Shown here: piece by piece, positions 20,003 through 64,000 of the stretch
How positions within the stretch are numbered: position 1 is the stretch's first letter
How the letters are laid out: every line of letters begins with the position of its first letter
Made by a program: the position numbers and the translations under genes
Notes under the pieces: model-generated
What the model saw: the letters and a program-made list of their open reading frames with translations, nothing else
The model's database searches: none
Told to the model about the DNA's origin: nothing
From: Candidatus Omnitrophota bacterium
Lineage (GTDB): Bacteria; Omnitrophota; Gorgyraeia; Zapsychrales; Zapsychraceae
Assembly: GCA_018062515.1 (NCBI GenBank)
Contig: JAGOSC010000001.1
Coordinates: forward strand, 40,765-104,764
Direction: 5' to 3'
Length of the DNA stretch: 64,000 nucleotides

Positions 20003-20230
20003 CTATCTTATGCTGGACAATTGATCTTCCGTATTTATAACCGCGCCTAATATGAGTGGTAGATTTGTGATTGGGGTGACGTTGATAATGACCGGCATTA
20101 AACCATCATCAATTTGAATATTCTCAAAATTGTATACCTTATTACCCGCGTCAAGATTATTCCCTTGACCTCTAATTTCTAATTCCAATAAATCAAGGCT
20201 AAAATCAACCCCACCTGTAGGACTCTGCGC
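20003..20230 (-). other. Family C-terminal conserved domain of about 70 aa (P1 copy). The same domain ends P2 (34746-34990), P3 (38425-38700) and P4 (54757-55000).
   Basis: Four-way alignment by eye gives GG(I/V)D(F/L)NPxLLDL(E/Q)IxGxG - 20-30 aa - NIxIxxGxxP(V/I)IINxTPxTNxPxLLG, then a short acidic/polar tail. I do not recognise the domain. Confidence 0.7.
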
Positions 20231-23200
20231 AGCTCCAGATTTACTTTGTGAAAGGTCATTTGTCGTCGAAGCATTAGAAAAACCATTCTTTAAAGCGGGT
20301 TGTCTATTTATTATGTCCCTTTTTCCATTTTCAAATTTTCGGCTGAAATCTTTAAAATCTTCCGGAAACAATTGCGATACCATTTCAATACCTTCACTGA
20401 CCGTCATATTAGAAACTGCATTCTCAATATACTTCTTTCCGGTAATTTCCGTCCACTCTTTCGACGCCTCAACAAAGACATTTAATAATGGCCGCCCTGT
20501 CAACATAGCGCCTTTAAGGACCGGCTTTGCCGCGGGATATAATTTAGCCCATTTACTTTCCTTCATGGACAAATCGATATAAGCCGTCATCATTCTTTCT
20601 GCCATAGAAACAGAAATCAAACTTCCGACTACATCTTTTATCTCCGCGTCTTGCTTCTTGATCAATTCATTAATATTGTCTTCTAATATTTGTGGGCCGT
20701 AAATTTTGACTAACGTTAGCGCATCTTTTCTGAGCTTCATATCTTGAAATTTTATTTTTCCCATCAGACTCTCCGTCATCTTATAAACTGCTGGCTGCCA
20801 TAAGGAACTCAGGAAATAACGGTTTGTCTTTTCATAAAAATTCTTTTTTAAAATTTGTCTAAAATCCTGTTCCTGCTCATTGGATTCATCCCTCTCAATG
20901 TCCTCAACCACAATATATTTCGCCTGTTCTTGAGCGGCACGTACAGTATCTTCGTCGCTCAAGCTAATATACGACCCGATCGTTTGCAAAGTTTCCATGC
21001 CATTTGCCCAGTCAGTTGGAAAAAGATACATGGCCTGTGTAAAAGCCTTCAAGAAGGTTGAAAAATTCTTTGAAATGTGAGAATTTTTCACTTCAGATAC
21101 AGCTCTCATACTGATCATATTCATCGTCATTTTAAGATCAAACCCCTTATCTAAAACCTCCTGTATGCTCTCCAATGATATGCTCGTCATTTTCGATGAA
21201 GCGCTGTCAGTATTTATAAAAATAGTATCAATCCCTGTCTTTATAAGATCTTTTTCTCTTAATAAAAGCCCTTTAAATAAAACCTTGGCACCTTCGCTCT
21301 GTTTCTTATTTAATGTCCCAACGTTCCCTCTATCAATCAATACCAAGCCACCATCCGGGGTAATCATTACATTAGCCTGATGTAGGTCAGCATGGAAAAC
21401 TCCGTCGACAAATATATTGTGCAACAATAATTGACGTAATAATGAACGTAATTTATCGTAATCAAATTTCAATAGCTTTTCTGATAAACCGTTTAACTCT
21501 GTTTCAGAAAAGCCGGCTTTCTTAAGACCTAAAATAATATGAGCTTGCTTAGAGTCAAGCTTCACTAATTCACTATAAATACGCTTGGCTTCTAGAGGTG
21601 AATACCCCGCCTTTGTCACATCTTCAATAGAAACAGGGTTTTGATTAGGCGCAAGATTTAAAATAGGAATACCCTGAATTTCCTGTTCAACAATCAAAGA
21701 CTTGGTTGCGTAAAAAATCTTCGGATGAATCAAATGTACACCTGCTTCTTTTTGTAAATCTTCCGACCATGAATAATCTAAATCAGTAAGCATATCGGAA
21801 AATTTAACCTCATTCATAAAATCCATCTCAAGAGTGACCCACTCTTTTACCGTTTGGACTAAATCACCCAAGTTAATAGCTTCTCCTCTATATACGTCAC
21901 CTTGAAGATCTTCCGAGACGGATTCAAGTGTTGTAAAATCTGTATCTAAGGTTACTTCCATATCCGGACGTCTAATTTTATAGACAACCGGAACGCCAGC
22001 CTCTTCACGTTTTATCTTATATTGATTTGCTTTTGCGACAATATACGCCACCAGCCCGCTATTCATAATATCTTTACTTTGAAACAATGCCGATAACTGT
22101 GATCTTATTTCATTAGCCTCAGCCTCACTCTTAGCATTTTTGAGCACTAATTGGGATAATAGTTCAATATCCAACCATTTTCCTCTATTTACCTGCTTGA
22201 TCGATGCTACACCGACGGGGTTGTCCATTTCTTGAACAAAGATGTCACTGAACGGTATTTCATTCTCTAAAACAGAAAAACTCGCTATTTTTGTAATTTC
22301 TGGTGCGTTATTTCTTAAAGATCCCAGGTTAGAGCGCATACGTTTATCCGGAACTAAAGTTTCATTTTCCGATAAATATTGAGATACTTTAATACCGACG
22401 GAACCCAATACACCCAGAAAAACAGCTAATCGTTCTCCGACGCTGGTCTTTTCAAAATTCCCCTTAGCGCGTAATTGAGCTAAAGCCTTAATGACATGAA
22501 CCCGTCGATAAGCGGGAAATTTTTTCATAACAACCAAGAAAACTTTTTGTAGAAGAAGTCTCGCCTCACTTTCAAGACCGGGCATATTCTCCGGAAAAAT
22601 AAATATGAATGTCTTTTCCAAAAAATCCGACATAATTCGTACATCATTTTCATCTTGCGGATCCAAAACTCCATTATCCCCCAACATAAACCCTTCGATA
22701 AATTTATCCCGCATGGTTGACGGAAGCAGCTTCACATCACTTGGCAACGTTGTAAAATCTATATTTAATTTCGTTTCAGCATCCACGACAAACTTCGGTT
22801 TTTCCTGAGCCCCGACAACCCATAATAAAATATCCTTTCGCTCGTCCATTCTCGCCGCCCCAAAAAGATGCAGAACGGTTTCTGAAATAAAATCGTGCGT
22901 TCTCAAATCTTTATTCGGCGACAGCAAATTATTAACGTATAGCTCTTTAGTAATGTATGCCACCTCTTCTAAGTGCTTGACATATTTATTGGCGATCTGC
23001 ATTAACAAATCATCTCTGAGTATGCTGGGTTCGGGCATAAATTTTGTTAAGGCGTCAATATTGTCGGTTAGACCCAATTGCGTATTTTCGGGTAATTGTT
23101 TCCATAACATGTAAGCTGTTGCACCATAACGAGACGTTTTTTGGGGTGACAATAATAAAGGAATCATTGTTTGATAGAAATCCAGTAATTCATATATTCT

Positions 23201-26200
23201 TTCTGGTGCTATTTCTATCTGTTGATTTAATTTCTCCAAGCGCCCCACATCATCATCCATTTCTCCCAAAAGAGTCCACATATCCTGCATATCTGTTTCT
23301 TTCCCGGACACTTGACGGGCTAATTTTACCAAAGCTGGTAAATCAGCAATAATTTCAGGAAATACATCGGTTTCCCACATATCAATAACACCGTCTTTAA
23401 TGAGCGATTTATGAGGCATTGACGTTGTTAACCAGTTCAACCTTTCTGGGAGCGGCTTATAATCGCCATACACATATCCTTCGCCATGAATTTTTATATG
23501 CTCGTTTATGAGTCTCGTATAAACCGAAGAATTCTTAAAAAACTTTGCCATTATTTTCCGGTAGGGCACTTTCTCCCCACTCGTATGGTCCTTCAGAAAA
23601 CCGATTGGATCGTTGATAATTTGGTTACCAACATTCGGATTTTGCAATAATGGGACTACTTCTAAAAAATTACCTTGTAAATTATTTTTGATTATGTAAT
23701 TTTCCCATACCGTATCCAGTGTTGCGTTTGGAATAGCGACACCAAGTAAATTTTCTTTAATCTGCGCATATGAAATTTTACTTACATCATCTTTTTCAAA
23801 TTTAAAGTTCAGGCTTGTACTAGCAGAAATCACTCCGTCTTTGTTCTGAGAATAAGAAACCCTTAGCTCCATAAGATCATCCAGCCTATCCATACTATTC
23901 TTTTCCATCCATTTCGGATCACCCAATTTCTTAAACAGAATCAATGTCATTAAATTGGCAAAAAAATCATTGTATCCGGATAGTGAAAAATCTTCACCCC
24001 TATATTCAACTGTTGTATTAAGCGCCACATATTGTAATCTCTTTTTCAAAAGCTGCTTCAATTGATCGATGGATAAATTCGTTAAACTGGTTAGAAAAAT
24101 AGATTGATGATCATATTGATTATCATTCCAACCAAAATTATGAAGCGCGAATCGAGATATAATGGTCTTGAATGATCCTTTACCTTCTGCCTCAGGCATA
24201 ATACTCGTCTTACCTGATTTAAAATCGGGCGTCCCCTCGTCCTTTGAAACCCCGCGTGATTGATACATGTACACTCTTAAAGGTGTTGCAGCACTTAAGG
24301 TGGTCAAGGCCGAATAAATTGTTTCATCGACATAATTCTGATCACTCATTTTTCCAGACTCTTCCATCTTTTCACGCAACAAAGCTAAATAAACCTCGCC
24401 TGATTTTTCCGAAGCTTGAAATGTTTTTGACGTTTGACTAAAAAGGTATTCAAGCAGTGTACTTTGTAAATTCTTTAGATCTGAAATAGGCGCATCGTTA
24501 TCTTGATCTTTCACTGCCTTGAGATATTGCCTATAGATTACATCAGTAACCAATTTTTCGGTTAACTTAAGGGCGTCATTTTTGGAAAACATGCCTAAGA
24601 ACCATACAGCCACTTCTTGGGGATTTTGTTTAAACGAGCTGATAAAAAATTTAGTCAAACGTAAATTGACGTCCGACTCTAAAAATACACTTTCAAATAT
24701 TCTTCGACGCTGATCATAGTCAAGCCTATCTTTCATCCAAGAAAAAAGTTCAGTAATTGAAGCGTTTTCTGTAACAGAAACCTTTATCATCGATGCAACC
24801 TCATCAAAATTCTTATCCAAATATTCAGAAAGAGCCCAGTCCGGCAACTCTGATAAGGCTTTAAAAGATTTAATCTGCTTTTTATCCGGCATATTGTAGT
24901 CTAATCCGGTTTCATTTTGAAACGTGTCTGGCACATGCGCTATTCTTTCTAAGCGAGGCGAACTTATATCTTCTGTAGTATTTAGTTGGCTTGCCACCCA
25001 TAGGTCAGGGTCATTTTTCAGTAAAGAATCAATCGCATCATTATTTCTACCCAACTCAATATCAAAATATTTTTTCAACCTTTGACGCGCTATATTTAAT
25101 GCTTCTGACTTCGAATGTTCTCTTAGTAAAAGGTTATAATATTTTAAAAAAATAGTATCGAGATCCTGCTGTGACCCTCGAGTATGTAAATCAACACCTG
25201 GAAAAGAGCCATCTAAATAACGACTATTGATGTTTTTTATCGGCCTTTTTAAAATATACTGAAGAAGGATAATATTTTGAAGATTTTTTCGGGTATCCGC
25301 GGATTGAATATCGCGATATGAGGGATTTTGTAAATAAATGGAATTGCTTTTTTGTCGTAACTTTGCCTGAACATCCGTGGTTGGAACCTTAACATTCACG
25401 GACGGTTGTTGATCAATATATTTGGCGTAGAAAAAGGCAGAAATTAATTTCTTCGGATCTTTTATTGCCTTTTCAAAAATTGCTTCCGCTACGTAAGCTT
25501 TTTTTCCTTGCGGTAATGGCACCTTATTCCCTAAAATGTCAAGTCTTCCCGCATCTTTTGCATCTGTAAACATCGGGATCAATTCTTCAACTTCATTCAA
25601 GGGAAGCAAAAAATTATCAAAATCAGCGTCACTGAGGCTATTTTGTAGAGAAGTAATGGAATTTAATTTATTTAATAAATCCTTTCCGGAAGCAGATCTT
25701 CTCGTATCTCCACCCTTTTCTTTCGATTTTTCATAATCTCTTATGTAAGTTTCAACATCACCCTTTAAGTCTTTTAAAAAATCTCCATAAAAATCAGAAT
25801 CCTTACGTTCTGATACTTTGATTGTCTCATTATCTTGCCCGAATTCATAAATGGCAGCAGCACTTCTCATATCAGAATAATCAATTTTTTTATTATATAC
25901 ACTTATATCAAGCCTGCGTGTCATTGCTTCGTGAACCGCCTGTACATAAACGTTACGCAAAAAAGAAGTTTTTAAATCTTTTTCTTTAACTAAAGCTTTT
26001 AAGAAATTCATGCGCCTTCGCGTAACAAGCATTCCCGTTAATTCATCTAAAGCTGTGACGCTTTCTGCATTCTGTATCTGATCTAATAAATCTTGGTCGC
26101 TCGCATCCATAAAAAGTCGAAAATCAACGTCTTGACTTTTTATTTCTCCTTCTCCTGCCATATTTACTCGTGGAGCCTTGATATTTGTAAAAATATTTGT

Positions 26201-28264
26201 TTTTTGTTCATAAATTAATTGAGATAATTTATGTTTCCTGAGGCTTATGTAGGGATGCGAATCTAATATATTTTCGGCTTGGCTGGATTGTTGCATATAT
26301 TCCAGAAATCTCATAGCGTCAATGGCTCCTAGTACAGAATATCCCGCCTTATTCATCAATTCCAAAGCCACCATGTCTGCATCATATTCACCATTCTTGA
26401 TCATTTGCAACAAATAAGGCAAAGTCTCAGATCCATAAAAATCTCGAATATTAAGGCCGTAATGGGTGGTGTTTTGTATGGAATGGCTTAACTCATGCGC
26501 CATGACAAAGGCAATTGCATCTTCCGTAAGCGGAACGTTCATTTTCCCAGCGATATCATACAAAGCTTCATACAAACCTTTAAAGAAATATACATCCGTA
26601 CGATTACGTATCACAAATGCATTAATCTCATTTGAATCGATAATGCGCAACTCACCCGGTGAATCCTTGGTTTTTACTGTATAAATATCAATGAGGCGAT
26701 CAAATATTGTATGCATTTTTTCAGTAACCATATCGGTGTTTCGCGGTAATATGCCTGTATGTTCCATTTGCTTTTCGATCATAACAATGTTCCGTTCAAA
26801 ATTGGCTTCCACGTCGTCAACTGAGATACCCTGTTTTTTAGCAAGCTCCTCAATTAAAATTTCATCATACGTTTCATTCTTCTCAATTTTATATACAGGC
26901 TGTTTCGGCGTGGTTTCTTTTAGTTTTAAATTTTTGACAGGCTCTATTCTTGCTGCGGTTGTGTTCACATCTTTAGAACCAGTTAAGATCGCTGGATCAT
27001 TTACCGGAGGTAATTCTTCTTCCTGCCCTTCTTCCTCGTTAAATCTTTGTTTCATAAATTCATTAACCGTCTCCGGAGATATTTTTGAACTGATAAATGC
27101 TCCCGCAATGAAATGCCTTTTTGTAGCTTTATTTGTCTTAGCCAATTGTTCCTGGGTCACATTATCCGGCGTCACTGTCTGAAGCGGGACGATAATCTTG
27201 GTCAAAACCATACCGCCGGAAAAATATTTTCTGGGAATGATTTCCTGTGATACCGCGTCATATTCATCTTTGATATAATTATAAACGCCTTGTTTAAATG
27301 CTTCTAAATATTGCGCGTAAATTTTTTCTTTAGCGGAAGGATCATCAATCTCAACACCCCCGATTTTCTTCCGATCTGAAAATTTCTGATTCAATATACT
27401 TTGTTTCAGATTCTGTTTGTACCACTTCGCTAAAATCAATGAGTTATAGACTTGACGTAACTTGGAAAAATTTTTACCTTCGTTCACTTCTTTTTCAATT
27501 TCAGGTAAAATAATTTCCCGTATAACCTCAGATCCCAGTTTACTAGTATTTTGATTTTCTGATTCGCTTCTGCCTTTTAAACTTCTTTCATCGGTTCGGC
27601 TATGTTCCAATGCCACGTAATCTTCTTCCAACATAACCTTTAAATGGCTTTCAATAACATAGACAATATCGCCATTTTGATAAACTACGGCCTTTTCGGG
27701 AACTATCCAAACTTTATTAAATGTGTTAACAGGAACTTCAGTTGTTCCATATTCTTCCTGCGCACGTTGATAAATCTTCTTCCAAAATGCTTGTCCCAAG
27801 GCCTCTTCCGGATAAATTAATGACGCCGTCAATTGCTTTAAAATATAATCCTGGGCTAATAAATCGCGGCCCATTTCTGTCATACCAAATTCATTGGGTA
27901 CAATCCGATCCTTTTCATAGGGAGATAAATTCACCCATAGATCATCTTCTGGAATGGTTAATGAAGCCAAAAAATATTTAATTAACTTATTGGCCTCTTC
28001 TTTTAAGCGGTCGGGATTTAAGTCAACATCTCCGCTATCTAAAATGAAATCAAAATGAAAAGGATTATTAACCGCTATTTTCATACCGGTCAACATCGGA
28101 GGAATAAAGGCAGAAGTACGGGTAATCATCATACCCGGGAGAGGTAAATTAAGAACACTTTGCGCATAACTTGGCTGAGGCGGGACTACAAATGTCACAG
28201 CCAAAATAAGGCTTAGACAGGAAGAGAAAATTTTGTATAAGAAATGGTTTTTAAGCCGGGTCAT
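20003..28264 (-). CDS. Giant secreted protein P1 (2753 aa): signal peptide, family N-terminal domain, M48-type metallopeptidase domain, long helical region, UbiB/ABC1-type atypical kinase domain, family C-terminal domain.
   Basis: Uninterrupted 8.3-kb ORF. N-terminal signal sequence (LSLILAVTFVVPPQPSYAQS). HELSH...EYDAD (M48). ASIKQVNRG ... VYKIRRP ... EMDFMNE ... FHADLHQANVMITPDGGLVLIDRG (UbiB). C-terminus GGVDFSLDLLELEIRGQG...PVIINVTPITNLPLILG. Confidence 0.9.
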   Translation of the reverse strand: MTRLKNHFLYKIFSSCLSLILAVTFVVPPQPSYAQSVLNLPLPGMMITRTSAFIPPMLTGMKIAVNNPFHFDFILDSGDVDLNPDRLKEEANKLIKYFLASLTIPEDDLWVNLSPYEKDRIVPNEFGMTEMGRDLLAQDYILKQLTASLIYPEEALGQAFWKKIYQRAQEEYGTTEVPVNTFNKVWIVPEKAVVYQNGDIVYVIESHLKVMLEEDYVALEHSRTDERSLKGRSESENQNTSKLGSEVIREIILPEIEKEVNEGKNFSKLRQVYNSLILAKWYKQNLKQSILNQKFSDRKKIGGVEIDDPSAKEKIYAQYLEAFKQGVYNYIKDEYDAVSQEIIPRKYFSGGMVLTKIIVPLQTVTPDNVTQEQLAKTNKATKRHFIAGAFISSKISPETVNEFMKQRFNEEEGQEEELPPVNDPAILTGSKDVNTTAARIEPVKNLKLKETTPKQPVYKIEKNETYDEILIEELAKKQGISVDDVEANFERNIVMIEKQMEHTGILPRNTDMVTEKMHTIFDRLIDIYTVKTKDSPGELRIIDSNEINAFVIRNRTDVYFFKGLYEALYDIAGKMNVPLTEDAIAFVMAHELSHSIQNTTHYGLNIRDFYGSETLPYLLQMIKNGEYDADMVALELMNKAGYSVLGAIDAMRFLEYMQQSSQAENILDSHPYISLRKHKLSQLIYEQKTNIFTNIKAPRVNMAGEGEIKSQDVDFRLFMDASDQDLLDQIQNAESVTALDELTGMLVTRRRMNFLKALVKEKDLKTSFLRNVYVQAVHEAMTRRLDISVYNKKIDYSDMRSAAAIYEFGQDNETIKVSERKDSDFYGDFLKDLKGDVETYIRDYEKSKEKGGDTRRSASGKDLLNKLNSITSLQNSLSDADFDNFLLPLNEVEELIPMFTDAKDAGRLDILGNKVPLPQGKKAYVAEAIFEKAIKDPKKLISAFFYAKYIDQQPSVNVKVPTTDVQAKLRQKSNSIYLQNPSYRDIQSADTRKNLQNIILLQYILKRPIKNINSRYLDGSFPGVDLHTRGSQQDLDTIFLKYYNLLLREHSKSEALNIARQRLKKYFDIELGRNNDAIDSLLKNDPDLWVASQLNTTEDISSPRLERIAHVPDTFQNETGLDYNMPDKKQIKSFKALSELPDWALSEYLDKNFDEVASMIKVSVTENASITELFSWMKDRLDYDQRRRIFESVFLESDVNLRLTKFFISSFKQNPQEVAVWFLGMFSKNDALKLTEKLVTDVIYRQYLKAVKDQDNDAPISDLKNLQSTLLEYLFSQTSKTFQASEKSGEVYLALLREKMEESGKMSDQNYVDETIYSALTTLSAATPLRVYMYQSRGVSKDEGTPDFKSGKTSIMPEAEGKGSFKTIISRFALHNFGWNDNQYDHQSIFLTSLTNLSIDQLKQLLKKRLQYVALNTTVEYRGEDFSLSGYNDFFANLMTLILFKKLGDPKWMEKNSMDRLDDLMELRVSYSQNKDGVISASTSLNFKFEKDDVSKISYAQIKENLLGVAIPNATLDTVWENYIIKNNLQGNFLEVVPLLQNPNVGNQIINDPIGFLKDHTSGEKVPYRKIMAKFFKNSSVYTRLINEHIKIHGEGYVYGDYKPLPERLNWLTTSMPHKSLIKDGVIDMWETDVFPEIIADLPALVKLARQVSGKETDMQDMWTLLGEMDDDVGRLEKLNQQIEIAPERIYELLDFYQTMIPLLLSPQKTSRYGATAYMLWKQLPENTQLGLTDNIDALTKFMPEPSILRDDLLMQIANKYVKHLEEVAYITKELYVNNLLSPNKDLRTHDFISETVLHLFGAARMDERKDILLWVVGAQEKPKFVVDAETKLNIDFTTLPSDVKLLPSTMRDKFIEGFMLGDNGVLDPQDENDVRIMSDFLEKTFIFIFPENMPGLESEARLLLQKVFLVVMKKFPAYRRVHVIKALAQLRAKGNFEKTSVGERLAVFLGVLGSVGIKVSQYLSENETLVPDKRMRSNLGSLRNNAPEITKIASFSVLENEIPFSDIFVQEMDNPVGVASIKQVNRGKWLDIELLSQLVLKNAKSEAEANEIRSQLSALFQSKDIMNSGLVAYIVAKANQYKIKREEAGVPVVYKIRRPDMEVTLDTDFTTLESVSEDLQGDVYRGEAINLGDLVQTVKEWVTLEMDFMNEVKFSDMLTDLDYSWSEDLQKEAGVHLIHPKIFYATKSLIVEQEIQGIPILNLAPNQNPVSIEDVTKAGYSPLEAKRIYSELVKLDSKQAHIILGLKKAGFSETELNGLSEKLLKFDYDKLRSLLRQLLLHNIFVDGVFHADLHQANVMITPDGGLVLIDRGNVGTLNKKQSEGAKVLFKGLLLREKDLIKTGIDTIFINTDSASSKMTSISLESIQEVLDKGFDLKMTMNMISMRAVSEVKNSHISKNFSTFLKAFTQAMYLFPTDWANGMETLQTIGSYISLSDEDTVRAAQEQAKYIVVEDIERDESNEQEQDFRQILKKNFYEKTNRYFLSSLWQPAVYKMTESLMGKIKFQDMKLRKDALTLVKIYGPQILEDNINELIKKQDAEIKDVVGSLISVSMAERMMTAYIDLSMKESKWAKLYPAAKPVLKGAMLTGRPLLNVFVEASKEWTEITGKKYIENAVSNMTVSEGIEMVSQLFPEDFKDFSRKFENGKRDIINRQPALKNGFSNASTTNDLSQSKSGAAQSPTGGVDFSLDLLELEIRGQGNNLDAGNKVYNFENIQIDDGLMPVIINVTPITNLPLILGAVINTEDQLSSIR
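21030..22250 (-). other. UbiB/ABC1/ADCK-type atypical protein-kinase-like domain inside P1.
   Basis: Ordered family motifs: PVGVASIKQVNRG (A-S-I-x-Q-V-H-like), VVYKIRRP (VAVKVQRP-like), EMDFMNEVKF (E-x-D-F salt-bridge Glu), VHLIHPKIFY...LIVEQEIQG, and FHADLHQANVMI...LIDRG (F-H-A-D-P-H-P-G-N ... D-F-G equivalents). About 60 aa are inserted after the first motif. Confidence 0.6.
26290..26790 (-). other. M48-family (HtpX/BepA/Ste24-like) Zn-metallopeptidase domain inside P1.
   Basis: AFVMAHELSHSIQ (HExxH at 26483-26497) followed about 50 aa later by KNGEYDADMVALELMNKAGY, the M48 third-ligand E-x-x-x-(E/D)-A-D motif. Confidence 0.6.
27060..28264 (-). other. Family N-terminal conserved domain (signal peptide plus about 330 aa), P1 copy. 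Also at 37280-38357 (P2) and 49250-50334 (P3).
   Basis: Shared blocks: LNLP.PG, NPL.F.F, LIKYFLA.LT.P...LWVNLSPYEKD(R/K)(I/M)IP.EFG.TEMGRDLLAQDY.LKQ, YGTTEIPV.TFNK.WIVPE.A.VY, SHLKVML..DY.AL, NEGE.F..LRQ..NS.ILA.W(Y/F)K.NL, PR.YFSGG. Confidence 0.7.
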
Positions 28265-28364
28265 TTATAGTACTCTATATTATTATTAGTTTAATACGCC
28301 CAAGTCTAACATATATATATAGGCGATGCCACAAAAGCAGCAATATAAATCGAAATTTTTTAAG

Positions 28365-29527: not shown

Positions 29528-29528
29528 A

Positions 29529-29771: not shown

Positions 29772-29772
29772 A

Positions 29773-37700: not shown

Positions 37701-38357
37701 TAAAGCCAGATAATCCTCCTCGAGCATGACTTTAAGATGACTATCGACGACAAAAACGGTTGTTCCATTAACATACACATCCGCTCTTTCTGGAACAATC
37801 CAAATCTTGTTAAAAGTATTCATTGGGATTTCTGTAGTTCCATATTGTTCTTGAGCCTTCTTGTAAACTTCATCCCAGAATTTTCCCCCCAGTTTTTCGT
37901 CCGGATTCATTAATGAAGCTGAAAATTGTTTCAACATATAATCCTGGGCTAATAAATCCCTTCCCATTTGTGTTAATCCAAAATCAGTCGGAATAATACG
38001 ATCCTTTTCATACGGTGATAAATTCACCCACATTTGTTCGGATGGAACAGTAAGCGTTGTCAAGAAATACTCAATGAGCTTATTAGCCTCGGCGCGAAAT
38101 TCTTCCGAACCTTGAACTTTGTCGCCCGGATCGATAATAAAATCAAATTTCAAGGGGTTGTCAGGATAAATCGTAATGCCGGTGATGATGGGAGGATTAT
38201 AGGGCTGGCTGACTAGCACTGGTGTTCCCAGAGCAGGCAGATTGAGCACACTTTGCGCGTAACTTTGCTGTGGTGGAACAACAAACGTTACCACCAAAAT
38301 AAGGCTTAAATAAGCCGAAAAAGTCCTGAATATTATGTGTGTTCTTAGTTGACGCAT
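34746..38357 (-). CDS. Giant-family secreted protein P2 (1203 aa): signal peptide, family N-terminal domain, internal TM, HEGEH motif region, family C-terminal domain.
   Basis: N-terminus about 60% identical to P1 and P3 (LSLILVVTFVVPPQQSYAQSVLNLP..., WVNLSPYEKDRIIP..., HLKVMLEEDYLALEH). HEGEH at 36087-36101. C-terminus GGIDFNPDHMQLNTQG...PVIINVAPVINIQMLLG. Confidence 0.9.
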   Translation of the reverse strand: MRQLRTHIIFRTFSAYLSLILVVTFVVPPQQSYAQSVLNLPALGTPVLVSQPYNPPIITGITIYPDNPLKFDFIIDPGDKVQGSEEFRAEANKLIEYFLTTLTVPSEQMWVNLSPYEKDRIIPTDFGLTQMGRDLLAQDYMLKQFSASLMNPDEKLGGKFWDEVYKKAQEQYGTTEIPMNTFNKIWIVPERADVYVNGTTVFVVDSHLKVMLEEDYLALEHNQNSQQHGLGKVTKEDIEITSGVSSEIVKNILIPAVEKEVNEGETFANLRQVYNSMILATWYKHNLQKSLLGGIFVNKGKVKGLEVEDKDGNEKIYEQYVESFKKGVHNFVRDEYDSTTQEMIPRKYFSGGINAAKIDAAILTSKENKKPSVNWLKRTTHASFSVFSLMLVALGITQTGEYYKKEDGGKPDNLEVFLVNEVNHANQQSTKIALSDLTQYLEHMKKTEQPLLFSTDINEWKRYLETTVDVEYFSDNLKNLGNDPKIFELFIYLYKIASYDASKLEIKDPLKDNGRLLKEAMLDIINDKNWQEQRMIESEETRKLRIFFEEVWSKYMTAVTDSSPNRRELEVDLVRKAKDISETLEAYMEYLVMSYQKEDPAFYKSKDFTFLKKWDEFEVYLLRNGFLGGMDLIEKKSGDMLPVIAIFVVDKEEKFILAGREIKVFYYRQVNKIDLPFHPLVAHQGAHLDGELFINMDYVNKETQNIINTLNGNNYLLTDSVTSSRIDQLIREAFSGMSPDEIKLDIINYIRVHEGEHAYFRDASSYSGTDYFKTLNDGLWDSFDDRLQIRIINETGAYLYSMAQNRRPILDLIGLGRIILRKQENDGYQNPYDYVATYIFNSVYKSLRKKGVKGLKPKKVRDARDGETIREMIDDMLMYPELLQQAAFELYNKDFKSFPITPPFILPKPINDDFQENLKKNISPEAVKYINDNGLTYSDSMNVAHTIDDDLIFTQLFGQSAKEKVWRAAVDSIGRSLSVKQMKEIALNSQRLNIELENSANDSMVQDFKKALEKNSGGQSLTLDHPVIQWFLSNYDVSENKNLDKILSQILIAVASGTLLYGDFVNFSDTLIEEKNISNEDREELIHFSQLLFWAMTLGFKNLGRKKNPNATDNKDKPLTGDPLGGIDFNPDHMQLNTQGTEIKYNLEFDPIKIQNIQIEGIQPVIINVAPVINIQMLLGESESDQENSIDKVPLQVANQHSS

Positions 38358-52908: not shown

Positions 52909-52948
52909 CTAACCATCAAATACATTACGTAGGTTTATACCGGATACT

Positions 52949-54684: not shown

Positions 54685-54756
54685 AGAGTTACAATAGCAG
54701 AGTTACGGTATATTTCAAGCTCAAATCTGAACCGGATGAGCTGACTTTATACCGCT

Positions 54757-57700: not shown

Positions 57701-60700
57701 TTGAGACCTGACAAATCCAAACTTATCCATTTCTGTTGAGCGTCATTTCGTATATTTATTCGCCCCTTCATTTCTTCGAGATCTTTTACCCCAAAATCAT
57801 TCAATATTTTTTTGGCTATTTCTTCTTGTTCGTCCAGGCTGAGGGTTTCTTTCTGCCCCGCGGTTTTATATTCCTCAGGCACGTCAGTTATTGTGATTGT
57901 TTCAGTCGGGGAATATATGATTCCTAAATTATCCCGATTTGGATGCTGCACAATAAATTCATAAATAGCTTTATCGGTTAACTGTGTATCGTCACCGACA
58001 TTTACATCTTCCTCTAAATGTGTGTCTGTTCGAAAATGAAGATCCAGGGTTTCCAATTTTTTCAGTGAAATCAGGTATTTTAATCCCGAATCTTGAATGC
58101 GATTGTTCGAAAAAGTCAGTTTCTTTAAATTCGTTAGCTGACCAACCCTGAAAAGAATATTGTCTTCTATTTTATGTTTGCTTCTAAGGTCTAACTCCAA
58201 TTCTCCCTGATCATTGACGTGTAATCGATCCATTGAAATATTTAATTCAAGCAATACTTTTCGAGCTTCAATTATCTGCTCATCCAGAGTGAGGGGCTTT
58301 TTCTGCTCAGCGGTTTTATATTCCTCAGGCACGTCATTTATGGTAATAAGCTTCCCAGAACTTGATATAACAGCCAGATTGTCTCCATTTTCATGTTGGC
58401 TGATAAAATTTTTAATGGCATCATCACTTACTTTCGTAGCTACAAATATCGCAGATCCCAAATTCGGCAATTTATTTAAATACGGCAATGCGGCATCAGT
58501 AACGTTCGTATCAGTCAAATTAATAAACTTCAGATTCAGTAAATCTAAATACTTTACCGATGTATCATCCACTTGGGTATAGTCAAGATATAATGCCTCT
58601 AAAGTCGTCAGAAGACGAATATTGAAAAGCCAAGTATTGATATTACTGTTTGTTAAATTTGATAAAATCACTCCAATAACTTCTTCCTTATCATTTTTTA
58701 TGATTCGATCTTTGATAGCGTCATCCGCAACGTCCAATCCTTTTAATAATTGACGGGCCATGTCCTCAACGGTGAGAGGTTTTTCCTGCTCCGCGGTTTT
58801 GTATTCATCCGGCACGTCATCTATGGTCAAATACGGGCCGCCCGCTCCAACCTCCAATTTTTGATTCGGATGTTGTACTATAAATTTATATATTTCTTCA
58901 TTACTTATATCTGATCTAGAAAAATATAAATTCTCTAAATATAGCAGACCGTTAAAATACTTTAACTTCGAGCTGGTTATGGTTACGCCTCCAAGAAATA
59001 GCCATGTGAGGTCTTTATCTTTTAATCCAGCAAGAACTTGGTCAATATTATTATCATTCAAATCATCTATGTGTGCCTTCAATTTTCCGCCTTCAACCAA
59101 TACAATGGGTTCTTTGATTCCTAAATTTCTTAACAATTCTTTGATCTGTGTCACTTGATCCTTCAAACTAGAAGGTTTTTTCTGCTCCTCGGTTTTGTAT
59201 TCATCCGGCACGTCGCTTATTCCAATCGTCTTACCAGAGGCTGAGATGACTTTCAGGTTATTTCGATTCATATGTTGTCCTAAAAATTTTTTAATATCGT
59301 CTTCACTTACATTCGTTCCAGATAAATCTACATAACGCAAATTTGGTAATTCAAGCAAAGGCGTAAGTCCAGAATAACTCACCTTTGTTCCCCTCAAAAA
59401 CATTGTTTCTAAATTTTTATTATTTAAATATGATAATTCTGAATCACCCACATCTGTGTTAGTAATATCCAATCTTGTCAATTTTTTCAATCCGTTAATT
59501 TGCTCTAAGTCATTCCCCTTTAATTTTAATTTAGTCCCTTGTAAAGTTAAATCTTCCAAAGTATCTAGCCGCGCCACGTCATAAAGTATTTTTGAGAAAT
59601 CTTTATTATCAGCAAATAAACTGAGGGACAATCTAAATAATTCACCTTGAGAGTTGACGCCTATGCGCAAATCACGCCGACCTTTTTCTAAAACTCCTAC
59701 ATCCTTTAATATTTTATGGGCCAGATCTATTTTTTCCTCCACGGAAAGTTCTTTTTTCTGTTCTGTGGTTTTGTATTTATCCGGCACGTCTGTTATGCCA
59801 ATGGTATGGTGCCTTCTTATAAACTTTCCTGACTTAACACTTATCTCATGCGCTAACGTAACTCTTATATTATCCCGATTCTTATGCTGCACAATAAATT
59901 TATAAACAGCTTCATTGCTAACTTGTGTCTCATGAAGATTTATCTCTTCCAAGTTTTCTAAATCTTTAAGAAGGAGGAGGTGTTCATCCGTCAAATTTGC
60001 TATCGAATTAAGAAGCAGATATTTTAAATTTGTCAAACGGTTAACGTCCGAAAGCACCTGACTAATATCATTACTCACCAGGTCAGATAAATTAAATCCT
60101 TCCAACTCTCCAGAGTCGTTCTTCAGTATTCGAGCTTCAACTTTCAAAAAACTCGAGCTAAAAGCCATATTTTTTAATAGTTTTGTGACTAAATCAAGCT
60201 GTTCTTCAGAGCTGAGAACTTCCTTCTGTCCCGCGGTTTTATATTTCTCAGGCACGTCACTAATTTTGTAAACAGTTCCGTTGTCATTTTTTCCCCACCC
60301 GTCCCCATAATATAATTTAACGGATAGATTATTCTGATTTTGATGCTGTCCGATAAATCTTTTAATAGCATCTTCGCTTACTACCTTTTTATAAAACGTT
60401 ACTTCTTTCAAATTCGGCAGTGCCAATAAATATGGCAGTTCGGCATCGGTGAATGCCGGTCCATTAAAGGTCAATTTTATCAAATTCGGAAGACGATTGA
60501 AATTCAGAAATATAGACTTGAGACCTTCAATGTCAAAATTTGATAAATTTAACGTGAATCCTACCCGATCGTATCTTTTTGATATTCGTTCCTCAATGCC
60601 AATCGCTGACTCCCCCTGCTTTTTTAAAATTTCCTGAGTCAGTTTCACCTGTTCATCCAAGCTGAGTTCTTCTTTCTGTTCCGCGGCTTTATATTCATCA

Positions 60701-63700
60701 GGCACGTCTTTTATTGTAATTTCTTTTCCGAATGCATGAACTGTTAAATTATCTCTATTTTTATGCTGCCATATAAATTTCTTTATGGCATCCTCAGTTA
60801 CTTTGGTTCCATTAAGATATAAGTTTTTTAAATTTGACATTAAGATTAAATACTCTAACTGTTTATCGGTTGTATCCGTATCATGCATGTCTAATGTTTC
60901 TAATTCAGTTAAATGCTTTATATCGTGAAAAATTGCCTGTTTCGTTGGCTCTAACAATGCTACACTTAATTCAGTTACTCCATAGTCATTAGTATCCATA
61001 AACAGATTACTTTTTGTAATGCCTAGCTTTTTTAATATTTTAATTGCCAAGTCAATTTGTTCTTGCCTGCTGAGTTTTTCATTCTTTTCCGTTGATTCAT
61101 CTCCAACATTTTCCTTTAATATGACTGAACGCATGACGCCATAGGTATAAACCTCTTCCACTTTGCGCTGAATGTCCTGTAAACTTACCAGTTCAAATGT
61201 ATCGCGCTGAAGGCGGCTGGAAACGTCTTTCTTTATCGCTTCATTCTCGACGGAGGTAGACCGTTGTATGGCTTTTTTAAGGTCGGCGAGTGTAGTGATT
61301 TCGTCAACATAACTGACCGCGTCTGTATATACAGTGAATTTAAATCCTTGTGCAAATAAAAATGCCAAAGCCTCGTCGAGAATCGGATTCCATTTGATTT
61401 CGTTCAAGTTCTCACCCGTTAAAATAATTGTCTTTTTAGAAGTTAAAGGAACACCGCTGCTACTCACATGTGCTTCGGAAGGATTTAGAAAATAGGCTTC
61501 TAGGTCAAATACACCATTCATCCCAAAATCATCACCAGGTGTTTTTTTAATTTGAATAAAGGCGTCCAAAGCCTGATTCAGTTCACTCTGGAACGTTTCA
61601 CTGACTTGAGCCATACGTGGTTGTCGAGGAGTATCTTCTGTTGTACTTCGGGTTAATTTGATTTGCTTGACCGATGGTGGTGTTACGGGCTTAGGATCAT
61701 ATTTTGAGGCTCGATGACTATCTGTATGGACACCCGCCCCATGTCGCCGGCCAATCATTCCTCCCATATCTATTCCTTCTCCAAAGCCATCTCCAAATTG
61801 TTGTCCGAACCCATGTCCTTTTACATCATTCCAAAATTTATCCAGCTTATTTAAAAAACTGTTTGATTTTCCTTTCTGATTCAATGATTCATTCGCCGCC
61901 TGCATTCTTTTTTGTGAAACCTTTCTAATATGACTCTTCAGTCGATTAACTTGACCTATAAGCGTTGACTCCAGATTAGATTTTTGAATTTGATGAATGG
62001 CATCAACAATGTTTCCTTGATAAGACGGATTTTCCAATAATGAAAGCATTTCTTCAAGACGTTCATCTAAAAGACGATATTCATACATTAAGTCCTTAGA
62101 AATTTCGTCTAAAATCCGTTTGATTTTTTGTTCAGTAGGTCGTGTGTTCCGTTTAAGACGATCAGCCAAAGCTTGTTTTTTCTTATTCAACTCAGCTTCA
62201 GTTAATGGCTGATTATTTTGAACAACATGGCTTTCTTCCTCTACATTTTCAACCTCACCCAAATTCCGGATAGCCTCAGCACTGTGGGCGCGTTCTTCCT
62301 CTTTCTCTTCTTCAGAAAGAATTTCTTCCGGTTGTTCTTCCACTGGAATAGATAAATAGTCATTTTCCATTGAGGAAAATAAAATATCCCCGCGAAACTG
62401 CTGATACAAACGTTCTTCTTCATCATTTACCCGCGCGTAAGAAAGCCCTAATTCCCGAGCAGCATCCAAATGTTTTAACGCTAAACGGACCGGATTTATA
62501 GCAAAGACATCATCTAATACACCGGCAAATTGTTCCAGACTCTCGCGTCGATTATTTTTTGCGTGTTCTGGGGTCAACAGAGTATTTGCATAAGTCCATA
62601 ACGTATATTGATACATTGTCCGCATAGTTAAAGGATCATTGCCGTCAATCATCCATTCATCAAATGTTTCAATATCCACGTCGGCTGCCATTTGAGCAAA
62701 ACGTTTTAAACCGTCTGACGGTATACCAAGTACGGAATACTCAAACTCATAACGATGCCCGGCCTCATGACGCAAATCTTCCATATCTTGCTGAAAATCA
62801 CTTCTGAGTACTGAGCGCGTCCGACGGGCATGACTGGTTTCATGGAACATGACATTCTCCCAATAACCATTGATAAATCCCCGCGACCGTTGGACAATTG
62901 CTTTTTGATCTTCCTTCCAATAACCACCACCGTCGTTTGCATCGGCACTGTCCTCCCACACATCAACCTCTCCGTAAAGATCTCCGACCAGATACCAAGC
63001 TATTTTTTTCATCATATTAATTTGCTGGATTTTCAAATCCTTGGCATCTTCCTGGTAATTGATTAATTCCTCGCGAGACGGAAGCTTTTGATTTTTCAAG
63101 AATTTTTGTAAATACAGCTGATAAACAAACTCTTCAGCTATTTTTTCAGGAGATTCACTTGGTAAACCCAAGCGCATATGTAACATACGGAGAAACTCCC
63201 GAGGCGTAGGCTGATGTTCTTTATTTTCAATGTGATTCTGCAGCCATAAATGAATATTCACCATGACCTTAATATCTTCCGTTGATACTTCCTTACCAAC
63301 CATATATGAATCAATAAACTGAACCGCAATTTGCGTTAATTCTTTTTGATTATAACTCCTTAAACGTTTATAAATAACCCGGTTCTGCAAGGCGCTGGAA
63401 AGCTTTTCTCGTCCATGAAAATCCACGGAATTAATGGTGGCAAACAGCGCAAAACCCGGAGCGGCGTTACCAGTCAACACATCATTGAGCCGCCCTTCCA
63501 AAAATCCGCTCGGTAAACGGTTCATTTCACTAATAACAACAATTGATCCTTCTCGTTGCGCCTTCTTGATGAGAGCCACCATTGCATCCGTATCAAAAGA
63601 CGCCGTAATGCGGTAAAAAGTTGTTTCAGGATTTGTTGCAGTTTGCTCTACCGATCCTTCTTTAAATCCATTTTCAGTGAGTGTTTTAACAACACTCACG

Positions 63701-64000
63701 TCCTTACCTTGTCCAGATGGGCCCTCAATAATCATCCCGCGTTTGCCTTGTAATGTCTGCGGATTTTTAACCCGCTCTTGACGCATATTTAAAAAATCTT
63801 GAATATCCGCCGTTAATTCCGCTGTAGAGTCGTTGAAAAAGAATTTATCTTTTTTAAAACGTTCGCCAAATTTTTTTTGAATGTCTGCTATCCGTTGTTG
63901 ATCAAGATCGTTCACTAAAACACCATACTTTTCTCGAATCAAATACGTAAATGCTTTTTTCTCCTCTTCAGAAAAATTTCCTTTATAAATAATCCAAGCG
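54757..64000 (-). CDS. Giant-family protein P4 (more than 3080 aa, 5' end beyond the window): degenerate AAA_5 (MoxR/midasin-like) ATPase module, tandem HExxH motifs, nine leucine-rich-repeat cassettes, family C-terminal domain.
   Basis: The frame stays open from 63942 to 64000 (AWIIYKGNFSEEEKKAFTY-L-IREKYG...), so the track's 'M' is a TTG inside the ORF. GPSGQGKD / IVVISEMNRL / FALFATINSVDF..LSSALQNRV follow the AAA_5 motif order. HETSH at 62830-62844 and HEAGH at 62755-62769. LRRs of the LxxLxLxxTxVTDAGL type. C-terminus GGIDFNPGLLDLEIQGKG...PIIINITPITNLPLLLG. Confidence 0.9.
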   Translation of the reverse strand, partial: AWIIYKGNFSEEEKKAFTYLIREKYGVLVNDLDQQRIADIQKKFGERFKKDKFFFNDSTAELTADIQDFLNMRQERVKNPQTLQGKRGMIIEGPSGQGKDVSVVKTLTENGFKEGSVEQTATNPETTFYRITASFDTDAMVALIKKAQREGSIVVISEMNRLPSGFLEGRLNDVLTGNAAPGFALFATINSVDFHGREKLSSALQNRVIYKRLRSYNQKELTQIAVQFIDSYMVGKEVSTEDIKVMVNIHLWLQNHIENKEHQPTPREFLRMLHMRLGLPSESPEKIAEEFVYQLYLQKFLKNQKLPSREELINYQEDAKDLKIQQINMMKKIAWYLVGDLYGEVDVWEDSADANDGGGYWKEDQKAIVQRSRGFINGYWENVMFHETSHARRTRSVLRSDFQQDMEDLRHEAGHRYEFEYSVLGIPSDGLKRFAQMAADVDIETFDEWMIDGNDPLTMRTMYQYTLWTYANTLLTPEHAKNNRRESLEQFAGVLDDVFAINPVRLALKHLDAARELGLSYARVNDEEERLYQQFRGDILFSSMENDYLSIPVEEQPEEILSEEEKEEERAHSAEAIRNLGEVENVEEESHVVQNNQPLTEAELNKKKQALADRLKRNTRPTEQKIKRILDEISKDLMYEYRLLDERLEEMLSLLENPSYQGNIVDAIHQIQKSNLESTLIGQVNRLKSHIRKVSQKRMQAANESLNQKGKSNSFLNKLDKFWNDVKGHGFGQQFGDGFGEGIDMGGMIGRRHGAGVHTDSHRASKYDPKPVTPPSVKQIKLTRSTTEDTPRQPRMAQVSETFQSELNQALDAFIQIKKTPGDDFGMNGVFDLEAYFLNPSEAHVSSSGVPLTSKKTIILTGENLNEIKWNPILDEALAFLFAQGFKFTVYTDAVSYVDEITTLADLKKAIQRSTSVENEAIKKDVSSRLQRDTFELVSLQDIQRKVEEVYTYGVMRSVILKENVGDESTEKNEKLSRQEQIDLAIKILKKLGITKSNLFMDTNDYGVTELSVALLEPTKQAIFHDIKHLTELETLDMHDTDTTDKQLEYLILMSNLKNLYLNGTKVTEDAIKKFIWQHKNRDNLTVHAFGKEITIKDVPDEYKAAEQKEELSLDEQVKLTQEILKKQGESAIGIEERISKRYDRVGFTLNLSNFDIEGLKSIFLNFNRLPNLIKLTFNGPAFTDAELPYLLALPNLKEVTFYKKVVSEDAIKRFIGQHQNQNNLSVKLYYGDGWGKNDNGTVYKISDVPEKYKTAGQKEVLSSEEQLDLVTKLLKNMAFSSSFLKVEARILKNDSGELEGFNLSDLVSNDISQVLSDVNRLTNLKYLLLNSIANLTDEHLLLLKDLENLEEINLHETQVSNEAVYKFIVQHKNRDNIRVTLAHEISVKSGKFIRRHHTIGITDVPDKYKTTEQKKELSVEEKIDLAHKILKDVGVLEKGRRDLRIGVNSQGELFRLSLSLFADNKDFSKILYDVARLDTLEDLTLQGTKLKLKGNDLEQINGLKKLTRLDITNTDVGDSELSYLNNKNLETMFLRGTKVSYSGLTPLLELPNLRYVDLSGTNVSEDDIKKFLGQHMNRNNLKVISASGKTIGISDVPDEYKTEEQKKPSSLKDQVTQIKELLRNLGIKEPIVLVEGGKLKAHIDDLNDNNIDQVLAGLKDKDLTWLFLGGVTITSSKLKYFNGLLYLENLYFSRSDISNEEIYKFIVQHPNQKLEVGAGGPYLTIDDVPDEYKTAEQEKPLTVEDMARQLLKGLDVADDAIKDRIIKNDKEEVIGVILSNLTNSNINTWLFNIRLLTTLEALYLDYTQVDDTSVKYLDLLNLKFINLTDTNVTDAALPYLNKLPNLGSAIFVATKVSDDAIKNFISQHENGDNLAVISSSGKLITINDVPEEYKTAEQKKPLTLDEQIIEARKVLLELNISMDRLHVNDQGELELDLRSKHKIEDNILFRVGQLTNLKKLTFSNNRIQDSGLKYLISLKKLETLDLHFRTDTHLEEDVNVGDDTQLTDKAIYEFIVQHPNRDNLGIIYSPTETITITDVPEEYKTAGQKETLSLDEQEEIAKKILNDFGVKDLEEMKGRINIRNDAQQKWISLDLSGLKNDQMDNKLSEISRLTDLKFLNLSGSSISNAGLQHVKGLTKLIHLELKDTNISDDGLEYLKELTFLKHLDLTNTKVTDAGLPSLSKLNLESLYLDGTKITEAGLSNLLSLKNLKLLFLEAGISKDAFLKFIEQHANQKNLEILTDSNTKLTVKDLPEHKIAEQKEGLSLDDQVNLAIKILGDLGVVKLNEIKERVDLLGEEKFMKLDLSGLSIDADIIDIDNILSDISRLTNLNMLNLSGMAVTNSGLMNLKGMSNLKELMLNDTMVSDSGLGYIKDLPNLVRLDLKGTNVTNDGLAHIKSLHKLGILNLRQTKVTDAGLVQIRELPNLIILILDGTNISDNGLVHLKGLGLSSLDLEGTKVTDVGLEKHLLGLPILQSLNFKDTAVSDDAIFKLIMQYNSPEPKIFSVVSSSGKTLFLDDVPSEYKIADPKETSAALDKRLAIARKYLENLGLNKNLGKERLTLNSDGKFVLDLDNSSLDEKIMDKIFVGLEQLSDDLEELYLYNVEMKNRAKHLPKLKNLKKLQYSTNENNDVDFKYLTKIKSLKELILYKENITIAGLKNLQYLENLEYLSVYATGFKDDLLIDFLNHHKNRDNLAILTSQGHMMTLNSEKTLDAAVKDLSIEREMLKETLRFNRKGEISGLSIFGLEPEAIIKILSWPSHLENISNIKLSVEKMDDAARERILSYLKNFKFLKELVLRDADNRNLNMENIDFPENLEEINIPSLSYLEQLETVSSLKKIEIHSYDFAPNYRDEATIKNNMERVYRSLVRHKNRDNLTIKYGHDVNQKVTMSNLPDQYKKLVEEERSKQTAEEQTLSSEETLLKSMLESLVQPDAVLKNVLNRFEADGLQDKAKDLIAKIGKEMKTNAIPGQDPTKDPSDQAKVPFGKYVSGASEMQNSDKSILGKEVGGIDFNPGLLDLEIQGKGQSFNAPNVNQNLQNIHIGEGLSPIIINITPITNLPLLLGATVNEEEMLSSVR
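56400..60760 (-). repeat. Nine tandem coding cassettes in P4 (each about 130-200 aa): LRR block, FIxQHxNRDNL, then DVPDEYKTAEQK-xLSLDEQ linker. The linkers are near-identical at DNA level.
   Basis: A core of about 33 nt (ctgctccgcggttttgtattcatccggcacgtc and variants) recurs at about 56440, 57225, 57870, 58321, 58790, 59180, 59760, 60225 and 60675, each encoding DVP(D/E)EYKTAEQK on the minus strand. Confidence 0.85.

Follow-up and report, generated by a model that had tools for sequence, protein, structure and literature searches.

A family of large proteins with a common head and tail

The DNA analyzed here is a 64,000-nt stretch from a Candidatus Omnitrophota bacterium (contig JAGOSC010000001.1, positions 40,765 to 104,764 of the forward strand; hereafter the window). 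About 33 kb of it is taken up by four minus-strand open reading frames (ORFs), P1, P2, P3 and P4, whose products share a fixed frame, i.e. a signal peptide and a conserved N-terminal domain (the head, visible in P1–P3) and a short conserved C-terminal element (the tail, in all four), around unrelated central regions (the cargo). A preliminary description of this stretch had reported four such ORFs of 2753, 1203, 3969 and more than 3080 amino acids (aa), and the ORF list agrees exactly with these lengths and with the coordinates below (HMM: hidden Markov model).

20003..28264, minus strand: P1, complete family member, 2753 aa (ORF; head and tail HMM matches)
34746..38357, minus strand: P2, complete family member, 1203 aa (ORF; head and tail HMM matches)
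38425..50334, minus strand: P3, complete family member, 3969 aa (ORF; head and tail HMM matches)
54757..64000, minus strand: P4, more than 3080 aa, 5' end beyond the window edge (ORF; tail HMM match)

The N-terminal ~350 aa of P1–P3 are 52–56% identical by BLASTP (E 1e-114 to 1e-136), which bears out the conserved domain of ~330 aa described earlier. The head is only visible in these three proteins since the N-terminus of P4 lies outside the window. A metagenome scan with the N-terminal part of P4 gave no match; in locus L082, which holds a relative, the gene is split and its upstream continuation carries a second AAA-like module.

27161..28162, minus strand: P1 head, aa 35–368 (BLASTP, alignment, AlphaFold2 (AF2) model)
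37284..38255, minus strand: P2 head, aa 35–358 (BLASTP, alignment)
49255..50223, minus strand: P3 head, aa 38–360 (BLASTP, alignment)

All four ORFs have in common their C-terminal 57–150 aa (29–49% identical by BLASTP, E 6e-4 to 2e-12), with the motifs GG[IV]D[FL] and P[VI]IIN[VLI][TA]P present, so the claim of one C-terminal element in P1–P4 holds as well.

20015..20257, minus strand: P1 tail motif, aa 2670–2750 (HMM match, motif)
34788..35024, minus strand: P2 tail motif, aa 1112–1190 (HMM match, motif)
38473..38718, minus strand: P3 tail motif, aa 3873–3954 (HMM match, motif)
54772..55011, minus strand: P4 tail motif, aa 2997–3076 of the visible part (HMM match, motif)

These are the only two common regions that BLASTP finds. 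The middles of P1–P4 show no mutual BLASTP similarity, in line with the earlier statement that the payloads between the constant ends are entirely different. P1–P3 each combine a signal peptide, an N-terminal match to the head HMM and a match to the tail HMM no more than ~100 aa from the C-terminus, which is how we define the family; P4, with its N-terminus out of view, is assigned by the tail only.

The preliminary description had also considered that the four ORFs might be chimeras of repeat-driven misassembly, and more generally they could be spurious ORFs made by repeats. Tandem Repeats Finder (TRF) reports two arrays only in the window (47 and 134 nt), copies of head-coding DNA are 67–79% identical over 100–220 nt, and copies of the ~450-nt repeat of P4 are 60–76% identical at the DNA level. 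Misassembly is therefore unlikely. The architecture moreover recurs in thousands of database proteins and, across many assemblies, in 66 complete ORFs that are independent of one another. With the Pfam domains intact as well, we consider the probability of an artefact negligible.

Distribution of the frame and coupling of its two ends

We searched with a head profile built from the three heads of P1–P3 and a tail profile built from 80 tails. The head profile matched at least 1598 proteins; those with names come almost exclusively from Candidatus Omnitrophota/Omnitrophica (taxon labels are those of the record titles). 'Uncultured Planctomycetales' stands in the titles of some records and Elulimicrobium in that of one, labels that are not confirmed. 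Taking one genome per species, at least 588 head loci were confirmed, with several loci per genome (five each in SMAG_U7936 and BWOrgControl MAG1) and no head more than 62% identical to that of P1. The tail profile, searched against 1.84 billion representatives of 50% identity clusters, retrieved 6001 proteins at E <= 1e-3, of which 3167 have E <= 1e-10. Among the 150 matches listed, the tail is located at the C-terminus (~10–100 residues from the end) and is single in all but three. Family members range from 0.6 to 5.8 thousand aa (the longest has 5808 aa), and the short natural members of ~600–650 aa consist of a signal peptide, the head, a middle of ~200 aa and the tail.

Judged from these sequence matches, the frame is a characteristic of the phylum Omnitrophota, and P1–P4 are paralogues. 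Thus the family of four proposed earlier stands as regards the shared frame, but it is not local: it is phylum-wide and has thousands of members. We did not find the head-tail frame described in the papers on giant proteins of Omnitrophota that were searched, in agreement with the suggestion that the system was undescribed. An origin from phages or mobile elements was considered and rejected, as only three head loci (L083–L085) were found among 2.9 million IMG/VR viral contigs; these three probably derive from the host or from the flanks of prophages.

To count how often the two ends go together, we scanned every ORF of 79 related loci and of the window with the two HMMs. Head and tail are found together in 66 of 76 complete head-bearing ORFs. 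In six of the ten tail-less exceptions the tail is found in the next, overlapping ORF, i.e. the gene is split by a frameshift, and the ORFs with only a tail either run off the 5' end of their locus or are frameshift continuations. In an independent set of tail-bearing representatives of at least 800 aa, 49 of 57 have the head at their start. The divergence of heads and that of tails are correlated (Spearman 0.39, Mantel p 0.001).

Predicted structures of head and tail

The AF2 model of the head (74 sequences; pLDDT 82.4, pTM 0.81) is an alpha/beta domain with nine helices and three beta-hairpins. Foldseek against PDB gave no structural neighbour (best E 0.1, TM-score ~0.1), and neither the head nor the tail profile matched any PDB sequence, so that the modeled head is apparently a new fold. 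No His and no Cys are among its invariant residues, which makes a role of the head as a metallo- or cysteine protease unlikely.

The tail (~75 aa) is bipartite, with the pattern GGIDLNPxLLDLQ...GFxPVIINITPxTNLPLLLG followed by a mostly acidic extension. About 45 residues separate the GG from the hydrophobic stretch, which itself includes prolines and polar residues. A median of 37 residues follows PVIINxxP (a median of ~27 lies beyond the hydrophobic stretch), and the extension is net-negative in 76% of the members and net-positive in 10%. The AF2 model (80 sequences; pLDDT 65.7, pTM 0.22) is coil, essentially without secondary structure, and its best-scoring parts are the two conserved motifs. 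Going by this model, we take the tail to be a linear element in two parts for recognition or docking, and not an autonomous domain. In ~9 of 57 members, the second motif is so hydrophobic that it scores as a membrane segment.

Both junctions with the cargo carry an invariant Gly-Gly in an alignment of 40 relatives (...PRKYFSGG between head and cargo, P1 aa ~345–351; GGIDLNP between cargo and tail, P1 aa 2684–2685). These may be hinges or cleavage sites of the double-glycine type; C39 peptidase domains have been reported in Omnitrophota giant proteins.

No known sorting or anchoring domain was found by Pfam in full-length P1–P4 (E <= 0.01), nor by NCBIfam in the last 110 aa of P1, P3 and P4 and in full-length P2 (E <= 1). 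With the PDB sequence and fold searches also empty, neither conserved end matches a known sorting domain, as the preliminary description had it, and the outcome that it had named as fatal, terminal domains that map to known sorting domains of Pfam or TIGRFAM, did not occur in Pfam and NCBIfam. Its comparison of the tail with a folded domain of the type IX secretion system (T9SS) kind, or with a signal of the sortase/exosortase type, is not supported by the predicted coil and the acidic extension.

If the tail is a docking element, its partner could be the head itself. The tail of one protein would insert in the head of the same or of another protein, so that members would assemble within the envelope into chains, into rings or into a scaffold of mixed enzymes, for which no separate machinery would be needed. 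The near-obligate 1:1 coupling (each protein having one head and one tail), a confident globular head model with three beta-hairpins, and a tail that is predicted, with moderate confidence, to be extended, a typical trait of segments that acquire their fold when bound, would all fit this explanation, as would the frequent tandem arrangement of family genes (in L053, in L059, and P3-P2 in the window). The correlated divergence of heads and tails also fits, but it does not discriminate, since shared ancestry alone would give such a correlation; moreover, some pairs with close heads carry dissimilar tails. We regard head-to-tail docking as rather unlikely.

Signal peptides and topology

Signal peptides were called by rule (charge of the n-region, uncharged run, residues at -3 and -1) and not by SignalP. 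The features of Sec-type signals are present and alike in P1–P3, as had been claimed (predicted cleavage marked by a slash).

28163..28264, minus strand: P1 signal peptide, aa 1–34, ...SYA/QS (sequence; family statistics)
38256..38357, minus strand: P2 signal peptide, aa 1–34 (sequence; family statistics)
50224..50334, minus strand: P3 signal peptide, aa 1–37, ...VAA/QS (sequence; family statistics)

Across the family, the signal peptide has a median length of 36 aa, a median n-region net charge of +3 and an uncharged core of 21 aa. The conserved Ala-Gln junction is read as the predicted cleavage site (-1/+1), and a small residue is found at -3 in 55 of the 69 members that bear the anchoring Ala-Gln motif. 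From the signal peptide to the tail motif, P1–P3 have no hydrophobic segment, and none was found in the visible part of P4; internal transmembrane (TM) helices are rare in the relatives. One relative, P0015, has the head followed by TM helices and no tail; because the helices come after the head, the latter would be on the outer side of the membrane.

These observations bear on the explanation that the proteins are not exported at all and are tethered at the cytoplasmic face. It would suit the typically cytoplasmic enzymology of the cargo (phosphoglycerate kinase (PGK), enolase, pyruvate phosphate dikinase (PPDK), radical S-adenosylmethionine (SAM) enzymes, methyltransferases, ABC1 kinase; see below), and a 2026 preprint gives a like reading for TM-only giant proteins (10.64898/2026.06.07.730766). 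The positive n-region and the small-x-Ala/Gln site, however, predict translocation of the downstream chain, the head directly follows the cleavage site with no TM helix to return the chain, and in P0015 the head precedes the TM helices and hence lies on the outer side. We consider tethering at the cytoplasmic face improbable.

Export by the twin-arginine translocation (Tat) pathway rather than Sec was rejected, with an RRx-hydrophobic motif in only 5 of 189 members. We note that WRR is found before the hydrophobic core of the signal in two members, L061:4252-8835 and L062:70-4920, which belong to a single sub-lineage and both have radical-SAM-type cargo. The motif may point to the export of cofactor-bearing cargo by Tat, or may simply be a feature of that sub-lineage.

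Cargo of P1–P4 and of their relatives

The cargo features of the four proteins are listed below.

26345..26725, minus strand: P1 M48 metallopeptidase, HELSH...GEYDAD (Pfam PF01435, 6.7e-13; motifs)
21248..22000, minus strand: P1 ABC1/UbiB atypical kinase domain (Pfam PF03109, 5.6e-20)
36087..36101, minus strand: P2 HEGEH motif, aa 753–757 (motif scan)
42004..44103, minus strand: P3 internal duplication, copy A, aa 2078–2777 (chunked self-BLAST)
39466..41517, minus strand: P3 internal duplication, copy B, aa 2940–3623 (chunked self-BLAST)
62320..63999, minus strand: P4 P-loop (AAA-like) module and two HExxH motifs (homologous to P0365, P0366 and P0367)
55150..61302, minus strand: P4 array of ~150-aa repeats containing leucine-rich repeats (LRRs) (Pfam LRR, PDB LRR proteins, self-BLAST)

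The M48 peptidase and the UbiB-type kinase noted earlier in P1 were both recovered by Pfam with the E-values above; weak PDB matches to ABC1 are seen just upstream of the kinase stretch (aa 1943–2036). The HEGEH motif of P2 is present at aa 753 as described, in a cargo that has no Pfam or PDB match; ~500 aa around it are 24% identical to a family member in L064. For P3, in which a helical super-repeat array had originally been proposed, self-BLAST shows an internal duplication of two ~700-aa copies with ~35% identity, and P3 has no match among PDB sequences. The account of P4 holds for the LRRs (Pfam; the ~150-aa, i.e. 450-nt, repeat occurs in at least seven copies at aa ~900–2950), for HExxH, of which there are two, and for a P-loop module (GPSGQGKD) with homologues, but not for its assignment to AAA_5, which Pfam does not report at E <= 0.01. 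The P-loop module shares 40% identity with P0365, a protein that also ends in the tail, and 33% with the N-terminus of a protein with a transglutaminase domain from Endozoicomonas, an animal symbiont.

Among 64 full-length members, pairs with 73–83% identical heads have zero BLAST similarity in the middle, and cargo is common only to one pair with 94% head identity, probably orthologues. Cargo modules of P1 and P2 recur in other members at 24–26% identity, with their order changed. Alike heads with dissimilar cargo are what one would see of a fixed signal, head and tail around swappable cargo, and this part of the preliminary description is well supported. Homologues of the P1 M48 module also exist as stand-alone genes of ~280 aa (L007:7219-8046 and L013:8408-9268), in both loci immediately upstream of family members.

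Pfam annotation of 40 full-length relatives gave a wide range of cargo, each family being found in one member only: a circularly permuted enolase, PGK, a Glu/Leu/Phe/Val dehydrogenase, AlaDH/PNT, PPDK_N with a domain of phosphoenolpyruvate (PEP) utilizers, PP2C with HATPase_c, two SAM methyltransferases, a family 2 glycosyltransferase (GT2), a B12-binding domain with radical SAM, and HEAT and TPR repeats. NUDIX, HAD, PGI and ankyrin domains were additionally seen among the head matches. The permuted enolase is encoded in L032:9947-14662 (a metagenome-assembled genome (MAG) of Candidatus Aceula lacicola), where Enolase_C (aa 946–1260) comes before Enolase_N (aa 1279–1373); the enolase signature ILIKLNQIGTVTET is intact.

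The annotated cargo of the relatives thus consists mostly of enzymes of the cytoplasmic type that depend on ATP, SAM, NAD or Fe-S clusters, and owing to this dependence they should not work in a normal periplasm or on the cell surface. This argues against simple adhesins and points toward action in a cytoplasm-like milieu, that of a host or prey cell, or toward another role of the frame. The frame is real; surface display or attachment, as suggested earlier, is a role that cytoplasm-type enzyme cargo fits poorly. In its explicit form this explanation holds that after Sec export the proteins are anchored on the producer by head or tail, as a surface coat or adhesin, and mediate attachment. A signal peptide without internal TM helices is compatible with it, as are the LRR, HEAT, TPR and ankyrin cargo of some members and the membrane-segment score of the second tail motif (~9 of 57); adhesion roles have also been proposed for Omnitrophota giant ORFs (PMC10066038). 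Besides the cofactors that would be absent outside the cytoplasm, the prolines and polar residues in the hydrophobic stretch of the tail and an extension that is acidic and not basic speak against it, and Pfam finds no classical adhesin domain in P1–P4. We therefore consider a coat or adhesin unlikely.

Comparison with known export systems

Cargo proteins of the T9SS (Bacteroidota) resemble the family in having a Sec signal, unrelated cargo of varied size, a C-terminal element of ~70–100 aa and many paralogues per genome. The family tail, however, has no match to models of the T9SS C-terminal domain (CTD; Pfam Por_Secre_tail, NCBIfam/TIGRFAM), and it is a predicted coil with no strands, whereas the CTD is an immunoglobulin-like beta-sandwich. 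In addition, no Por/Spr genes were seen, and the family, which belongs to Omnitrophota, has a second, obligatory conserved element (the 330-aa head).

MARTX toxins are alike in their constant two-ended frame and in their central effectors, which are exchanged by recombination and act in the cytoplasm of the target. They differ as substrates of the type I secretion system without a Sec signal and in having glycine-rich repeat arms and a cysteine protease domain, none of which the family shows by Pfam (RTX/HemolysinCabind or other such repeats gave no Pfam match in P1–P4).

TpsA proteins of two-partner secretion (TPS; FhaB, CdiA) share with the family a long signal peptide, a conserved N-terminal domain of ~300 aa and a very long variable passenger. 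The family head is alpha/beta and not the TPS beta-helix (no match to PF05860), no gene for TpsB (POTRA and beta-barrel) is found nearby, either in the window or recurrently in the 79 related loci, and TpsA proteins lack a conserved C-terminal tail of this kind.

Signals for sortases, exosortases and rhombosortases (LPXTG, PEP-CTERM, GlyGly-CTERM) are likewise C-terminal signatures on unrelated exported proteins, and a Gly-Gly and a hydrophobic stretch are found in the tail too. The ~45 residues between the two, the prolines and polar residues inside the stretch, and an acidic extension in place of a short basic cluster set the tail apart. For trimeric autotransporters, YadA_anchor (PF03895) is unmatched by Pfam in P1–P4 and no strands are predicted in the tail. 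Polymorphic toxins have a variable C-terminus and an immunity gene; in the family it is the centre that varies and the C-terminus is constant, and the genes downstream in the window are housekeeping genes.

The closest likeness is of another kind. Giant proteins of Omnitrophota (West-Roberts 2023; 2026 preprint; Seymour 2023) come from the same phylum and carry HATPase_c, radical SAM, PPDK_N, NUDIX, HAD, AAA_5 and HEAT/TPR domains behind signal peptides; pilZ genes lie downstream of their genes and a locus like that of the type II secretion system (T2SS)/Tad upstream (West-Roberts 2023). In the window a PilZ gene is close downstream of P4, two genes away; the window does not extend to the region upstream of P4. 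The giants have 10–147 thousand aa, are TM-rich and are found at T2SS/Tad-linked loci, whereas family members have 0.6–5.8 thousand aa, are essentially TM-free, are scattered among housekeeping genes and bear the head-tail frame. P1–P4, with 1.2 to more than 3.1 thousand aa, fall below the >~10 thousand aa with many TM helices by which the giants are defined. The family thus belongs to a kind already known, the large modular proteins with signal peptides in Omnitrophota, to which our analysis adds a frame marked by terminal tags.

A putative sorting frame for cytoplasm-type cargo

Our preferred interpretation, held tentatively, is that family members are modular proteins exported by Sec, whose head and tail act as handles that route the cargo to the cell surface or to a cell-cell interface, most likely into a host or prey cell. 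After Sec translocation the signal peptide would be cut, leaving an N-terminal Gln. Head and tail would then be two common handles for a shared envelope component that recognizes or holds every member, and the disordered tail would probably fold only upon binding. Arbitrary cargo could thereby be routed to the surface or interface, most likely into an attached host or prey cell, where ATP, SAM and NAD are present and where proteases, kinases, ATPases, glycolytic and radical SAM enzymes and repeat scaffolds might serve as effectors. From the frame, the coupling, the swapping, the signal features and the types of cargo, all of them observed, we infer the binding partner, the passage through the outer membrane and the delivery.

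What is reported of the phylum is compatible with such a role: the literature describes Omnitrophota as epibionts or predators of ultra-small size whose giant multi-enzyme proteins bear signal peptides (PMC10066038; 10.1101/2023.11.21.568195; 10.64898/2026.06.07.730766). RNA of V. archaeovorus reaches prey cells (PMC13153191), and electron micrographs of open cytoplasmic contact between predator and prey are cited within the same paper; by analogy, this transfer would be an indirect precedent for delivery.

Several points weigh against delivery through a shared handle. About 10% of head-bearing proteins have no tail (e.g. P0015), hence the tail is not strictly required. No secretion, processing or sortase-like gene was found in the 64-kb window, and no machinery gene is a recurrent neighbour of family genes in the 79 related loci and the window, so the dedicated export system proposed in the preliminary description keeps its fixed frame while its machinery stays conjectural. 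Many cargo regions are without any annotation, the signal peptides rest on rules and their cleavage is predicted, Sec export of unfolded radical SAM and other cofactor enzymes is awkward, and delivery into another cell has to be supposed for every member.

A more specific version, in which head and tail would be recognition elements of an Omnitrophota-specific post-Sec pathway (a self-assembling chain, or an outer-membrane translocon or anchor of a new type) that carries cytoplasm-type enzymes into or onto host or prey cells, is possible, and we consider it doubtful.

Omnitrophota are widespread and uncultured, and to our knowledge nobody knows by which route their giant multi-domain proteins are exported or what they do. 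The frame offers a searchable handle, with two new domain models that mark thousands of proteins with clean cargo swapping. It allows the candidate effector repertoire of any Omnitrophota genome to be listed, co-distributed machinery to be searched for, and cleavage and localization to be tested in existing metaproteomes. If there is a dedicated pathway, it would amount to a new principle of protein sorting and would supply the export logic that is missing for the giant proteins of this phylum; if cytoplasm-type enzymes do reach the inside of other cells, bacteria would have an equivalent of the metabolic effectors that intracellular eukaryotic parasites secrete.

Genomic neighborhood

Every gene of the window lies on the minus strand. 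The giant ORFs are interspersed among housekeeping operons with short gaps (67–211 nt). The neighbours include a cytochrome bc-type complex with a multihaem cytochrome, an F-type ATP synthase, haem biosynthesis, system II cytochrome c biogenesis, MoeA, GDPD and rhodanese. The GC content of the four giant ORFs (0.366–0.374) is 3–9 points lower than that of the interleaved housekeeping genes (0.386–0.463).

The sole recurrent neighbour of family genes is a GAF-HD (HD_5) protein, found in 11 of 80 loci (e.g. L008:8093-9577), which is likely a cyclic-nucleotide phosphodiesterase. The PilZ-domain ORF of the window (120 aa, 52949-53311, minus strand, Pfam 1e-7) lies between hemN and hemE. Together, the GAF-HD neighbour and the PilZ ORF hint at control by cyclic di-GMP.

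Directly downstream of P2 there is a 217-aa ORF (33984-34637, minus strand) with a lipoprotein-type start (MKSK...AYS/C), which overlaps a ResB-like gene by 8 nt and has no Pfam or NCBIfam match. Elsewhere in the window, a 979-aa protein (3186-6125, minus strand) has eight CxxCH motifs and regions resembling cytochrome c, c7/c3 and FixO; it adjoins split cytochrome b genes, an unusual fusion in a bc-type complex.

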